Of a stretch of 48,184 bases of DNA, positions 1 to 3,940 are shown piece after piece. Numbering within the stretch: the stretch's first letter is position 1; the number at the start of each line of letters is the position of its first letter. Where the stretch lies: the NCBI GenBank assembly GCA_964598025.1, contig CAZRAU010000009.1:2485-50668 (forward strand), written 5' to 3'. Made by a program: the position numbers and the translations under genes. The stretch comes from an uncultured bacterium. Its GTDB lineage: Bacteria; Arandabacterota; Arandabacteria; Arandabacterales; Arandabacteraceae. The notes under the pieces were generated by a model. That model was not told where the DNA came from and did no database searches. It worked only from the letters and a program-made list of their open reading frames with translations.

Positions 1-155
1 ATCCTGCTTATGGCTTTCAGGTATGCCGAAAGGCCTTCGCTTGACTGCCGGGGGGGCGCTTCGGTCCCCCGCTTGGCAGGAGCCTCCTGCCGCTCAAGGT
101 CCTGCCTGAAAGGGGAATCACTCTGATCTTCATCGGCAATGCTTTGGCGCTTCAT
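1..155 (-). CDS. 5' part of a probable sigma70-family (RpoD/RpoS-like) RNA polymerase sigma factor, truncated by the window edge
   Basis: Manual translation (not in ORF track): MKRQSIADEDQSDSPFRQDLERQEAPAKRGTEAPPRQSSEGLSAYLKAISRI. LSAYLKAISRI resembles sigma region 1.2 (YLxEIGRIPLL). Alternative in-frame ATG at 170. Confidence 0.65.
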   Translation of the reverse strand, partial: MKRQSIADEDQSDSPFRQDLERQEAPAKRGTEAPPRQSSEGLSAYLKAISR

Positions 156-250
156 AGGGGCTTCACCCATTCCCTGGGATCGGCCTCGGGTCCCCGCTGA
201 GTGCCTTTCAGTCGAGAGACGAGAGGCTTCTCAAACCAGTGAATACTCTC

Positions 251-268
251 TTGCAGGTTTCATGCCGG
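251..268 (-). promoter_or_regulatory. sigma54 (-24/-12) promoter
   Basis: Minus strand CCGGCATGAAACCTGCAA has GG-N10-GC spacing and lies upstream of the sigma-like gene. Confidence 0.75.
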
Positions 269-313
269 ATACTGGATCTTCTGCAATAAGTGCGGGCGGA
301 TTATCTTATGTGA

Positions 314-326
314 AATCAACTGGTTA
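314..326. promoter_or_regulatory. IHF binding site
   Basis: AATCAACTGGTTA is an exact match to WATCAANNNNTTR, has AT-rich flanks, and sits between the sigma54 promoter and a palindrome. Confidence 0.65.
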
Positions 327-379
327 CACGCATTGCCTCAATGAGGAGAATGAGACCGATTGCCCGTCAACAGACCGAA

Positions 380-398
380 ACGTGAAGCATGTTCACGT
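380..398. promoter_or_regulatory. palindrome, candidate upstream activator sequence
   Basis: ACGTGAA-GCATG-TTCACGT, 7-bp perfect arms, about 150 bp upstream of the predicted sigma54 start site. Confidence 0.5.
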
Positions 399-479
399 AG
401 ATCGAGAGGACCTATTAACTTGTTATAATACAACGGGTTTCAACGAGAAGCAAGGTAACACCCGCGGCGTAAACTTAGT

Positions 480-3400
480 TCACGATTCGATGTGGTATCG
501 CTGCAGCTTGTTCAGAAGACCCCGTCTGCTTATGCCCAGGCTCCTGGCGGCCCTGGCCTTATTCCCACCCGACTCCCTCATCGCCCGCCTTATCATCTGT
601 TTCTCGACCTGTTCGACGGCATCGGTGAGCGGCTTCTTGCCATCGGTAGCCACTATCGTACCCCAGCCGGTGATGTCCTCTGAGAAGAGATCGGGACTGA
701 TGAGTTCACCGTCACCGGCAAATGTCACAGCCCGCTCGATCTCATGCTCGATCTGCCGCACATTACCCGGCCACGCGTAGCTCACGAGAAGGTCCATCGC
801 CGGGGCGGAGAACCCTATGACAGCCTTGCCGAGCTGCTTGTTGTACATCTCTAGAAAATGTTCCGCCAGCAACGGAATATCATCCCTTCGCTCTCGAAGC
901 GGAGGCAGTCTCATGGATATGACTTTGAGCCTGTAATACAGATCCTCAAGGAAACGCCCGGCCTCCACCTGCTGCGAAAGATCCCGGTTGGTCGCACAAA
1001 TCAGCCGGAAATCGATCTTCCGCGAGACCGTCGAACCTACGGGTTTGAACTCCCGCTTGTCGACAACCTGTAACAGACGTTCCTGGAATTTTCTCGAGGT
1101 CTTGTCGATCTCATCCAGAAAGACCGTGCCGCCATCGGCCGCTTCGAAGAGGCCCTTCTTGTTTGCCTTGGCATCCGTGAAGGCGCCTCTTACGTGGCCG
1201 AACAACTCACTCTCGAGAATCTCATCGGACAGGGCCGAGCAATCAATCGTCACAAAAGGCCGGCTTGCCCGGTTACCACTGGAGTGTATGGCTCTCGCCA
1301 ACATTTCCTTGCCTGTGCCCGTCTCGCCTTCGACCAGGACGGTTGTGGATGCGCTGTTCAGGAAGCGCATGGCCTCCAGGATTTCAAGCATCTTCCTGTT
1401 CTGGGTTATGATGCCGTCAACAGAAGTGGTCTTGGTCAATCGGGAACGTAAGAATCTGGCCTCCTCCATGTACTTGCCCAGCTGGGCCTCGGACAGCACA
1501 CTCTTGGCAATGCCCATCAGGGCGACCACAAACTCGACGTCGTCCCTGGTAAAAGGCTTGCCGGAGGACCTCGAATCGAGATATATGCAGCCCGACCCGG
1601 CACCGCTCACGGCGACCGGAACACATATCGCGGCGACACTGGGCACACCATCCCCCCCATTGCAACTCAGTCTCCCATCACGGTCAATGCCGGCGCTTAC
1701 CAGCGGGCGGCCGGAAGATTCGGCAATCATGAGCATCTCCGCAATGACGGGCTTCAGCTTCGTGACCGCTTCACCGTCCGTCCCTTTTGCAGTCACAAGA
1801 CCGAGGTCTCCACCACGATTAAGCAGTATGATCCCACGCTCCGCCGTCGTCTTGGCAATGCAGGCATCCAGAACGGCATCGAGTTTCGCGACCTCTCCGC
1901 GCGAGCGCAGTATCCGGTCCACGACCGTATTGAATTCGGCCAGGTCATTGGCCTCGCTTACCGATAGCGTCGAAACCTGCTCGTCGGCCTCGCGCTCAAT
2001 CCTGGATATTTCTTCCATGACATCGTTGGGGACGCTATCCCCGAATATGCGGATCACCTTGCCCAGCAGCCCGTGGCATCGTTCTATGTCACCCTTGGTT
2101 GCCGCGACTTTGCCCAACCACAGCGCGGAGAGCCCTGCCTCATAGTTCATGCCGAGGTCTTCGAAGATCCCCAGCCCACCAGCCAGGTACTCACGGGCCA
2201 ACCCGGATGAAGATGCCTGTGAAGAAAGCAACTCACCCGCAGCGAGATAGGTCTTGGCCAGTTCCTTCTTTTCTCCCAGCGTCGAGAACTTCTCAATCGT
2301 CTCAGCAAAATCGACTCGCGCTCTTTCCCACTCACCGAGATTGAATTCCGCGCACGCCCGGGAACGGAGCGAACACGCCTGCTCGAATACATCCTTCATT
2401 TCAGAGGCCAGAAGGTAGGCGTCCGACGCCAATTCCATGCCCGCTTCATGGTTCCCGCATTGTGCCTCGACGTCTGCCAGTCTTCTCTTTGCCTCGGTGA
2501 CGACATCGCCGCGCGGTGCTATCTCCTCCGCTATGGCCAGAGCCTCCCGGTAGCACATCCGCGCATCGTCAAGCCGGTCACAGGCCATATGCAGGTCACC
2601 CATGTATTCAAGGCTAAGAGCCGAATCCCTTGCCACCCCGTTCTCGGAGCTTTCCTTCAATGCCCTCACAAAGTACTCTTCGGCATGCTCGAAATCGCGA
2701 TAGGTCAGATGGTACTGACCAAGCGATAGATAGACCGAGACTATGTCAACCTTGTTTCCTATCCTGGTGAAAGTCTCAAGTGACTGATTCCAGCAACGGT
2801 GCGCCTTCTTCAGCATGCCCATCTTCGAATAGATGATTCCCAGATTGTTGAGGCGCATCGCCTTCTGAAGATGCTGGCCGACCTCGTCAGCTATTTCAAG
2901 GGCTTCTTCAAAGAACTTGCGGGACTCAGACCACCGCCCAAGATTCTTGCAGGTCAGCCCGAGATTGTTAAGGACAGTCCCCTGAAGATCGCGGTCCTTC
3001 GTTAGCCTGGCTGCGGACAGGGCGGCACGGTACAGGTCGAATGCTCTCTCATTCTCGCCCTTCCTGAATGCTATTCCACCCAAACGGTTATACGTGTGTG
3101 CGATCTCTCTCCCCCGCTCATCTCCGAGCAGGATATCCAACCCGGATTCCAGATCGGCCGAGGAAAGATCGTATTCACCTCGTCTGAAGTGAGCCCATCC
3201 CCGTTCCCCAATGATGCGCGCAAGCTCTACGGGATCCTCTCCTTCGGACACCAACATGAAAGCCTTGTCAAGCAGCTCCAGGGCGTGATCGCACTTCCCT
3301 ATCTTCAGATAGCAGACTGCCAAGCGTCGTAAGAGGGAAGCTCGCCTCACCTTGTCCTGTACAGATGATCCGGTGAGCGCAAGCAGCTTGTTGAAGTACT

Positions 3401-3530
3401 CTATCGCGGTGGCGAACTCCCCGCTGGCAAGGCAGAAATTACCAAGGTCCTCAAGCGACGTGCTTATCCCGTGGCCCTTGTGATCCTTCCCCCCTTTGCC
3501 GGTGGGCCCACTGCCGTGTAGCTCATCCAT
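480..3530 (-). CDS. TPR-repeat + GAF + AAA+ sigma54-dependent transcriptional activator with Fis-type HTH
   Basis: About 500 aa of TPRs (LNNLGLTCKNLGRW, LNNLGIIYSKMG), GAF-like segment (ICVPV..GCIYLDS), Walker A GETGTGKE, ESELFGH, GAFTDA, FLDEID, WPGNVRQ, HTH NKARAARSLGISRRGL. Start moved to ATG 3530 behind GGGGAAAGGGTG. Confidence 0.95.
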   Translation of the reverse strand: MDELHGSGPTGKGGKDHKGHGISTSLEDLGNFCLASGEFATAIEYFNKLLALTGSSVQDKVRRASLLRRLAVCYLKIGKCDHALELLDKAFMLVSEGEDPVELARIIGERGWAHFRRGEYDLSSADLESGLDILLGDERGREIAHTYNRLGGIAFRKGENERAFDLYRAALSAARLTKDRDLQGTVLNNLGLTCKNLGRWSESRKFFEEALEIADEVGQHLQKAMRLNNLGIIYSKMGMLKKAHRCWNQSLETFTRIGNKVDIVSVYLSLGQYHLTYRDFEHAEEYFVRALKESSENGVARDSALSLEYMGDLHMACDRLDDARMCYREALAIAEEIAPRGDVVTEAKRRLADVEAQCGNHEAGMELASDAYLLASEMKDVFEQACSLRSRACAEFNLGEWERARVDFAETIEKFSTLGEKKELAKTYLAAGELLSSQASSSGLAREYLAGGLGIFEDLGMNYEAGLSALWLGKVAATKGDIERCHGLLGKVIRIFGDSVPNDVMEEISRIEREADEQVSTLSVSEANDLAEFNTVVDRILRSRGEVAKLDAVLDACIAKTTAERGIILLNRGGDLGLVTAKGTDGEAVTKLKPVIAEMLMIAESSGRPLVSAGIDRDGRLSCNGGDGVPSVAAICVPVAVSGAGSGCIYLDSRSSGKPFTRDDVEFVVALMGIAKSVLSEAQLGKYMEEARFLRSRLTKTTSVDGIITQNRKMLEILEAMRFLNSASTTVLVEGETGTGKEMLARAIHSSGNRASRPFVTIDCSALSDEILESELFGHVRGAFTDAKANKKGLFEAADGGTVFLDEIDKTSRKFQERLLQVVDKREFKPVGSTVSRKIDFRLICATNRDLSQQVEAGRFLEDLYYRLKVISMRLPPLRERRDDIPLLAEHFLEMYNKQLGKAVIGFSAPAMDLLVSYAWPGNVRQIEHEIERAVTFAGDGELISPDLFSEDITGWGTIVATDGKKPLTDAVEQVEKQMIRRAMRESGGNKARAARSLGISRRGLLNKLQRYHIES

Positions 3531-3583
3531 GTCACCCTTTCCCCGCAAGCTCAAAGGGTGAGACAAACTCCGCTGCCGGCTTG

Positions 3584-3880
3584 TTACCTACTAGGATCCT
3601 TCCTAAAGGCAGCAGGAAGCCTCTCAGCCATCTTGCGAAGCTGAAGTCTCTGCTCTTCCCAGTTGATAAACACCCTGCCCAGCAATGGGATGTCGACCAC
3701 CAGTTGCGTCTCGGATGAACAGCACAACTGCACCTGAGAACAACCCCCGTCTCTTCCGCGCATCCCTTCAACAATATCAGGATCGCCATAACTGGGGTGT
3801 TTGGGGCCGGCCGCCACACTGCCACACAAGATGAGGGAAAGAAGCAGGCATAGCAGAATGCACAAACGTGTCTTCATCAT
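3584..3880 (-). CDS. small secreted protein (98 aa) with Sec signal peptide, unknown function
   Basis: MMKTRLCILLCLLLSLILCGSVAA|GPKHPSYGDPDIVEG...; GGAGG RBS and a near-consensus promoter directly upstream. Confidence 0.8.
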   Translation of the reverse strand: MMKTRLCILLCLLLSLILCGSVAAGPKHPSYGDPDIVEGMRGRDGGCSQVQLCCSSETQLVVDIPLLGRVFINWEEQRLQLRKMAERLPAAFRKDPSR

Positions 3881-3911
3881 ACCCCGCCTCCGGTTTCAGC
3901 CTTCATACTCT

Positions 3912-3940
3912 AATATACGCCAGTTCCGCCGGAATGTCAA
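3912..3940 (-). promoter_or_regulatory. sigma70 promoter for small secreted protein + activator operon
   Basis: TTGACA-17 nt-TATATT on the minus strand. Confidence 0.8.

Follow-up and report, generated by a model that had tools for sequence, protein, structure and literature searches.

At the left end of a 48,184-nucleotide (nt) stretch of DNA from an uncultured bacterium (bases 2485-50668 of contig CAZRAU010000009.1, here C9, of assembly GCA_964598025.1; the whole stretch is hereafter called the window) we find a gene for a small exported protein, a gene for a sigma-54-dependent activator with a long N-terminal region of tetratricopeptide repeats (TPRs) and a GAF domain, and a gene for a sigma-70-family factor preceded by a sigma-54-type promoter. 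On balance, we regard these genes and the elements between them as a self-contained regulatory unit conserved across Candidatus Eisenbacteria. Judged from sequence comparison, the part that is conserved across lineages is the pair of microprotein and TPR activator, and the sigma output is a wiring of the Eisenbacteria. The genome comprises 3.4 Mb in 190 contigs and is 95.7% complete. The three genes and their regulatory elements are all placed on the minus strand, at the positions given in an initial annotation made from the sequence alone, and the open reading frame (ORF) list, Pfam and motif scans bore out every feature listed there. Orthologous loci were searched with the TPR-GAF part of the activator (688 amino acids, aa) as query, with a threshold of E ≤ 1e-40 for the phylum-wide counts; 15 loci were fetched at the family, order and class level, 13 of them at family and order level.

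The activator gene (480..3530, minus strand) encodes a bacterial enhancer-binding protein of 1016 aa, in which Pfam, NCBIfam and AlphaFold2 (AF2) together delineate about 12 TPR units, a GAF domain, an AAA+ domain and a Fis-type helix-turn-helix (HTH). The ORF list has this frame as 480..3566, with 1028 aa from an upstream TTG, and alignment with the orthologues places the start at the ATG at 3530. Pfam matched TPR_12 five times, GAF weakly (E 9e-4), Sigma54_activat (PF00158, E 1e-62, residues 719-885), AAA_lid_14 and, at the C-terminus, HTH_8 (E 7.5e-15); the Walker A motif is GETGTGK. The best NCBIfam match was the NifA model TIGR01817 over residues 549-958, with 334.7 bits against a cut-off of 528.85, and public sources label the protein 'sigma 54-interacting transcriptional regulator' or 'transcriptional regulator with GAF, ATPase, and Fis domain/TPR repeat protein'. 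An AF2 model of residues 1-690, made from a 16-sequence alignment (mean predicted local distance difference test, pLDDT, 86), has about 25 paired TPR helices at 20-520 followed by an alpha/beta GAF fold at 530-690. The most hydrophobic 19-residue window of the protein (1.73) falls on the GAF strands and the activator is therefore read as having no membrane helix; neither did Pfam find a receiver domain, so that both absences claimed at the outset hold. The L1 loop of the AAA+ domain reads GAFTDA, as against the canonical GAFTGA, in the window activator and in the 8 orthologues where it was read; in 7 other orthologues the pattern search ended at an earlier GEFTTA, short of the loop, which was left unread. 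Two paralogues of the same genome, on contigs C3 and C17, retain GAFTGA. One orthologue (L034, contig C386) has an in-frame stop just before the GAFTDA loop, leaving an open frame of 793 aa; either an error in sequencing or a gene that is broken in this metagenome-assembled genome may account for it.

The TPR model was compared with the PDB by Foldseek. The first-ranked match was TONSOKU with a histone H3 tail, and further matches listed were LGN/Pins with extended peptides, SPINDLY/OGT, APPBP2-degron, APC/C, SKI and designed TPRs; the modelled region thus resembles generic peptide-binding TPR superhelices. No RRNPP receptor of the Rap/NprR/PlcR/PrgX type was among the matches listed at ranks 1-50, which is weak evidence since TPR folds are generic.

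The small ORF (3584..3880, minus strand) encodes 98 aa that begin as a signal peptide, with a basic N-terminus, a hydrophobic core and a small residue at -1 before a G-P pair (predicted cleavage ...A|GP). The mature N-terminus carries the motif GP(K/R)xPxxGDPDI(V/F/W)E, which reads GDHDIPQ in the class-level relatives, and past the motif follow a variable linker, a hydrophobic strand pair predicted to form a beta-hairpin, a helix and a basic tail. Six residues (A24, G25, P26, G32, D33 and D35) are invariant in 15 orthologues, and in the family- and order-level proteins the tail has a net charge of +2 to +6 (13/13) and nearly always ends in arginine (12/13). In 7/7 pairs of close relatives, third codon positions change more than first and second positions, and the numbers of non-synonymous and synonymous changes are about equal, from which we read the ORF as coding but fast-evolving. 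The AF2 model, of low confidence (pLDDT 62), shows the signal helix, disorder at 21-59, a hairpin spanning 60-72 and a second helix spanning 74-86. The small protein has no match among the Pfam or NCBIfam models. A profile search of 5.8 billion proteins gave 42 clusters, 25 of them with a source name, and 24 of these are called 'hypothetical protein' and one 'phosphate-selective porin'. In the ESM Atlas the best score of the window protein (0.80) is at chance level, and its counterpart from a second phylum, described below, had no usable match. A membrane-spanning tether was considered and is not supported, as the C-terminal segment exceeds a Kyte-Doolittle hydropathy of 1.6 in only 1 of 50 sequences.

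At the other side of the activator lies the 5' part of the sigma gene (1..155, minus strand), which continues to the left of the window as far as C9 base 1688. Within the window its ORF spans 3..170, and the likely start is the second ATG at 155, which is conserved in the leader alignment; the translated part contains GLSAYLKAISR, a region 1.2-like motif. A run of 10 N at C9 2475-2484, directly left of window base 1, interrupts the gene, and beyond it a 262-residue open frame starts with IPLLTRVEEQQLARR. In a genome of the same genus (L022) the N-terminal and C-terminal sigma matches abut without a gap in one frame, and we therefore read the N-run as an assembly gap inside a single gene. The proposal that the downstream gene encodes a sigma factor was confirmed by this leftward extension, as Pfam finds Sigma70 r1.2, r2, r3 and r4 in the 262-aa stretch. 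The best NCBIfam models belong to the RpoD/SigA and RpoS types; they score about 242 bits, and none reaches its cut-off (TIGR02394, 241.5 versus 378.7; TIGR02997, 242.2 versus 384.5; the query lacked the N-terminal 56 residues). By its sequence the product is a sigma-70-family factor, RpoD/RpoS-like and primary-like (group 2-like), and by the NCBIfam cut-offs it is not an RpoS orthologue. Its nearest paralogues in the genome are RpoD (591 aa) and a 291-aa sigma factor, at 38.6% identity each. Direct folding places a 16-bp terminator-like hairpin with a U-run after the sigma stop codon (z -3.46); a pattern-based terminator scan had no match there, the outer loop being longer than the scan allows.

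The 490-nt spacer between activator and sigma gene has a layout common to all family- and order-level loci. A first inverted repeat, GTGAA-N5-TTTAC (469..483, minus strand), overlaps the activator stop codon and a second, GTGAA-N5-TTCAC (382..396, minus strand), lies about 125 bp upstream of the -24 element; both are candidate enhancers. The general form GTRAA-N5-TTYAC recurs at offset -1 to +2 in 11/13 loci for repeat 1 and at +85 to +91 in 13/13 for repeat 2. Genome-wide the pattern occurs at 11 sites, two of them here, and none of the other 9 copies has a sigma-54-like promoter within 320 bp; the pairing of repeat and promoter is thus unique to this locus, which points to a dedicated activator. 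Between enhancer and promoter lies a consensus site for integration host factor (IHF), WATCAANNNNTTR (314..326, plus strand), and an IHF-like site is found at +155 to +161 in 6/13 loci by the strict and 11/13 by a loose pattern (YAA-N4-TTG). The IHF consensus has 1 match in the 48-kb window against 0.72 expected, so that the weight of the site comes from its position and conservation and not from its count. More generally, some motifs of the locus are expected by chance alone, as the IHF pattern illustrates, and it is the recurrence at the same offsets in up to 15 loci that lifts the set of elements above chance. The genome has five genes of the HU/IHF family.

The sigma-54 promoter itself, GGCATGAAACCTGC (253..266, minus strand), has the -24 GG and -12 GC, and a GGCAC-N5-TTGC-like element occurs at offset 206-258 in 15/15 loci, the class level included. 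The palindromes, IHF site and -24/-12 promoter described at first reading are therefore present and keep their offsets across loci. The only rpoN match of the genome lies on the same contig (C9 53431-53907; PF04552, 210.7 bits), about 2.8 kb past the right end of the window. In its sequence, the spacer has the layout usual for sigma-54 promoters with remote enhancers. Adjacency and conservation suggest that this promoter is used by the activator next to it, and we consider the step from activator through sigma-54 promoter to sigma gene very likely. The predicted 5' leader of the sigma gene contains a conserved box, AGCCYCTCGTCTC (216..228, minus strand), in the family-level loci. The weak consensus fold that RNAalifold gave for this leader (-1.64 kcal/mol, one compensatory pair) was rejected as evidence of structure.

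Across the phylum the arrangement is retained. Full-length orthologues of the activator were found in 12/12 genomes of the same family, 3/3 of the same order and 2/2 of the same class, and in 18/18 genomes of the phylum at the threshold given above. The sigma gene directly follows the activator in 14 of the 15 loci, the remaining one (L024) ending inside the activator, and ORF reading found the small ORF in each of the 14 loci that reach far enough upstream (in L034 the upstream part is limited to 187 bases); tblastn alone recovers the small protein in 9/15. The synteny of small signal-peptide ORF, activator and sigma gene that had been predicted from the window is thus conserved in the collected homologues. 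The outer neighbours vary between loci: trkH is found upstream at the family and order level, a DksA/TraR-type gene upstream in 11/15 fetched loci and in 0/2 at the class level, and a radical-SAM gene downstream in 8/15. The minimal unit is therefore taken as small ORF, activator and sigma gene. In the window the directly upstream neighbour (3964-4545, minus strand) encodes a DksA/TraR zinc-finger protein of 193 aa with a long Lys/Ser-rich N-terminal extension. A search of sequencing runs returned 11 rows of DNA runs, the best of them labelled salt marsh metagenomes, and listed no RNA runs.

The small ORF and the activator are preceded by a sigma-70-type promoter, TTGACA-17-TATATT (3912..3940, minus strand), which agrees with the consensus at 11/12 positions. 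TTGAC and TATA are kept in 15/15 aligned loci, the two class-level relatives included, in agreement with the promoter assignment made initially. Within the transcript, an anti-Shine-Dalgarno (anti-SD) sequence, UCACCCUU (3561..3554), pairs with the ribosome-binding site (RBS) of the activator, AAGGGUGA (3539..3532), in a predicted hairpin that would occlude the latter (3532..3561, minus strand); GCGGGGAAAGGGTGA, which contains AAGGGUGA, lies one base before the activator ATG at 3530. An 8-bp consensus stem covers this RBS in 13/13 family- and order-level loci, with GCGGGGAAAGGGTG invariant. A further stem is suggested around the stop codon of the small ORF (arms 3616..3608 and 3577..3570; 3570..3616, minus strand) by minimum free energy (MFE) folding, which pairs the last codons with the sequence after the stop in 13/13 loci, the arms differing between clades. 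Its z-scores range from -0.7 to -3.4, with 5/13 at or below -2, and it is absent from the RNAalifold consensus; this stem is suggestive only. In shorter paralogues of the activator, the small ORF ends between 3 nt before and 12 nt past the activator start in 5/5 automatically scored loci. The RBS hairpin, the stop-codon stem and this abutment of the paralogous ORFs suggest a linked ratio of synthesis for the two proteins, and such linkage is usual for partner proteins.

The pairing is repeated elsewhere in the genome, which contains about 19 sigma-54 activators, several of them with TPR N-termini. Short frames in which GD[PDH]D comes after a hydrophobic stretch were sought throughout the genome, with 5 matches, namely the window small ORF, three similar ORFs and one membrane permease, a false positive. 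Two of the similar ORFs, on contig C3 (pair at 43130-47021, L071) and contig C151 (46-2694, L072), lie directly upstream of TPR activators of 743-746 aa. The third pair involves contig C5 (72052-72810) and contig C17 (78-2801): the ORF is 250 bp away from a contig end, and the start of a similar N-terminus comes after it. Paralogues at the class level have an upstream small ORF in 4/4 cases, with the motifs GDHDI or GGDELE, and the shorter paralogues in other Eisenbacteria in 7/7 (5 scored automatically, 2 by frame reading), with the motif WGDPDWP.

Three further loci in the data set touch on these genes. On C3 of the window genome, genes for an extracytoplasmic function (ECF) sigma factor and a zf-HC2 anti-sigma factor follow the paralogous activator. 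A second activator-to-sigma unit at this place was rejected: no good -24/-12 element was found there, nor was the ECF sigma gene found in the orthologous loci L116, L117, L119 and L120, among which L116 and L120 alone include over 2 kb of sequence beyond the activator. On contig C94 (4110-6907, L075) a gene for a 491-aa sigma-54 activator is followed by AGGCACAGAGGTTGCA (10/12 consensus) and by a gene for a 293-aa sigma factor with regions 2, 3 and 4; this is a second arrangement of activator, sigma-54 promoter and sigma gene, possibly of flagellar type. The TPR-GAF query also matches a protein of 1671 aa encoded on contig C43 (L070, 3524-8539), which has a sigma-54 AAA+ domain. The related cluster P0155 also lists protein-kinase and AAA_16 domains, and no small signal-peptide ORF was seen upstream of the 1671-aa gene.

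A related pair exists in a second phylum (L076-L113), probably Zixibacteria, as we read it from one homologue with the source name 'Candidatus Zixiibacteriota'. The activator of genome G036 is a TPR-AAA+-HTH protein of 984 aa (about 980 aa in relatives), and a search with its N-terminal part gave matches in 136 of the 151 genomes sampled from that phylum. Upstream of the activator, 30/30 of the best loci and 4/4 further loci at 30-42% identity have an ORF of 93-128 aa. The encoded small protein has a signal peptide, the motif (E/G)xPWDxD, a linker rich in Gly, Ser and Asp, and an amphipathic segment with aromatic residues; two of its residues, D33 and D35, are invariant and three others, E29, P31 and W32, almost invariant. 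In most of 8 loci examined, an LplA-like gene and a gene for a large outer-membrane-type protein follow the activator.

From these data the following mechanism can be proposed. The near-consensus sigma-70 promoter would transcribe a two-gene operon for a small exported protein and a cytoplasmic activator, and the hairpin burying the RBS would hold down translation of the activator, which is probably coupled to translation of the small ORF. The activator would bind the two GTRAA-N5-TTYAC repeats that begin at its own stop codon, and bending of the IHF type would let it contact sigma-54 polymerase at the GGCAC-N5-TTGC promoter. ATP hydrolysis would then switch on a single-gene sigma transcript, and the primary-like sigma factor would retarget RNA polymerase to its regulon. 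As for the input, we think that the small protein most probably gates the activator by way of the TPR superhelix. It would bind there in extended form, before export or at the membrane, or else as a re-imported fragment, and the GAF domain would add a small-molecule input. The gene content, promoter anatomy, conservation and gene pairing behind this scheme are features of the sequences compared; the DNA binding, the activation and the contact between small protein and TPRs we infer. The small protein gene with its W/G-D-x-D motif would be the obligate partner gene of the activator. A functional tie of some kind between small protein and activator we hold to be likely, and we lean towards the mechanism as a whole.

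Several observations weigh against this scheme. The exported small protein and the cytoplasmic activator belong to different compartments, so that direct contact needs an extra step, and the C-terminal hydrophobic segment reaches the hydropathy of a membrane helix in only the 1 of 50 small proteins mentioned above. GAFTDA replaces the canonical L1 loop in every orthologue where the scan reached it. A search of the two class-level relatives did not find the enhancer repeats at these offsets. The RBS hairpin shows 0 compensatory changes, so that its support comes from the conserved non-coding 5' arm. The pair has no sigma gene beside it in the second phylum, and 8 loci searched there showed no sigma-54-like promoter, either after the activator or ahead of the next large gene, from which we conclude that the sigma output is specific to the Eisenbacteria lineage. 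A complex prediction of TPR-GAF (1-690) with the mature small protein (25-98), run with alignments, returned a score of 0.00 and 'no answer', and was used neither way.

How the small protein would act can be read in different ways. A signal-peptide ORF adjoins a TPR regulator in every clade examined and the TPR fold resembles peptide-binding superhelices, which recalls the RRNPP systems, as the initial annotation proposed: the exported small protein would be cut and a peptide re-imported through a peptide permease to bind the TPR groove. Specificity could come from the residues flanking D-x-D, which differ among the four paralogues of one genome. The best-conserved motif, however, sits at the mature N-terminus and is common to paralogues and phyla, unlike specificity-bearing signal peptides, and the small proteins (95-130 aa, with a predicted hairpin and helix) are longer than RRNPP pro-peptides. 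The small gene is also upstream of and translationally linked to the activator, no permease gene lies in the neighbourhood examined, no RRNPP receptor is among the Foldseek matches listed, and these lineages belong to the FCB group and are hence presumably diderm. We consider this route quite improbable. The compartment problem is solved without re-import if small protein that has not been exported, or its tail, binds the TPRs in the cytoplasm or at the membrane, so that the activator reads export or degradation. FlgM/sigma-28 and IpgC/MxiE are analogues among secretion-coupled regulators, and PspA/PspF is a further analogue. The shared operon, and ORFs that overlap or nearly abut in paralogues, imply co-production in a fixed ratio, which would suit such a monitor, and so would the basic C-terminal tail of the 13/13 family- and order-level proteins (+2 to +6). 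A general export monitor is hard to square with four paralogous pairs per cell, the hydropathy of the C-terminal segment is not that of a membrane helix, and the tails of the second phylum are not consistently basic; we judge this reading unlikely.

It would also be conceivable that the small protein gives no direct signal to the TPRs. The small ORF could be a cis-acting leader, like SecM before secA, whose translation or export state remodels the mRNA and sets the amount of activator. The RBS-occluding hairpin just downstream of the small ORF in 13/13 loci, the stem around its stop codon with clade-specific arms, and the fast-evolving middle of the protein, where non-synonymous changes about equal synonymous codon changes, are consistent with such a role. 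A pure leader has no need of a W/G-D-x-D motif conserved over two phyla, and the anti-SD arm begins 22 nt after the stop codon, farther than a terminating ribosome would reach. We could identify no arrest motif in the small protein, its conserved RLPxxS...R tail not being a known one, and we give this explanation little credence. Alternatively, the small protein may be simply a co-expressed exported product or may work with a membrane relay, with the activator sensing something else through GAF and TPRs. GAF is a common ligand sensor in NifA-type activators, and the best NCBIfam match of the activator, below cut-off, is NifA. But the adjacency of the pair survives duplication and phylum separation while other neighbours change, which is unusual for unrelated genes, and we think this, too, improbable. 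The specific proposal that exported W/G-D-x-D microproteins are cognate protein or peptide ligands, or anti-activators, of TPR-GAF activators, forming a new family of paired sensors in FCB-group candidate phyla, we put forward tentatively, as a possibility that is open to considerable doubt.

Cascades in which an activator and sigma-54 turn on a second sigma factor are known, and their inputs are receiver domains or partner proteins. Rrp2 of Borrelia burgdorferi is a response regulator with a receiver domain. In the Rrp2-RpoN-RpoS pathway, an enhancer-binding protein and sigma-54 turn on the gene of an RpoS-type sigma factor (PMC4014564). To that extent the present locus is similar, as an activator and sigma-54 are predicted to drive a sigma gene; unlike in Rrp2, the input consists of about 12 TPR units and a GAF domain, a small exported protein is co-encoded and the sigma factor falls below the RpoS cut-off. 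In Pseudomonas syringae the receiver-less HrpR/HrpS drive the sigma-54 promoter of hrpL, and their activity is set by the partner HrpV and not by phosphorylation. The receiver-less activator and the sigma-54 promoter before an alternative sigma gene are found here as well. HrpL is an ECF sigma factor, whereas the sigma factor here is primary-like with regions 1.2 to 4, and HrpR/HrpS have no TPR or GAF region, in contrast to the activator here, whose putative partner carries a signal peptide. In NifA-type activators GAF, AAA+ and Fis-type HTH follow in the same order; the 500-residue TPR superhelix before GAF and the predicted target, a sigma gene and not nif, set the present protein apart.

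RRNPP regulators (Rap, NprR, PlcR, PrgX, AimR) are not AAA+ proteins; their pro-peptides are shorter and usually encoded downstream, and the mature peptide comes from the C-terminal part of the pro-peptide and is re-imported in monoderm bacteria. The locus shares with them a TPR regulator beside a small signal-peptide gene, and differs in that the regulator is an AAA+ activator and the small protein has 95-130 aa and an upstream gene. As in SecM-secA, a signal-peptide ORF directly precedes a gene with its RBS in a hairpin; unlike there, the motif is conserved across phyla and the downstream gene encodes a transcription activator and not an export factor. Among titles and the opening lines of abstracts, we found no description of a TPR activator paired with a small exported protein.

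Taken together, the comparisons suggest that the new element here is the pairing of microprotein and TPR activator, in the Eisenbacteria, paralogous activators included, and in a second phylum, the type of cascade being already known. The input is a 500-residue TPR superhelix with a GAF domain, and the gene is always accompanied by one for a small exported protein that belongs to no known family. To our knowledge no member of these phyla is in culture; the parts (promoter, two repeats, activator and microprotein) are small and well delimited, which makes the scheme testable in a heterologous host. If the microprotein does gate the activator, this would be a new diderm route from extracytoplasmic events to sigma-54 transcription without a membrane kinase. 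No sigma-54 activators before these would then have been described as gated by an exported microprotein encoded beside them, and in the Eisenbacteria the pair would be wired directly to an alternative sigma factor.

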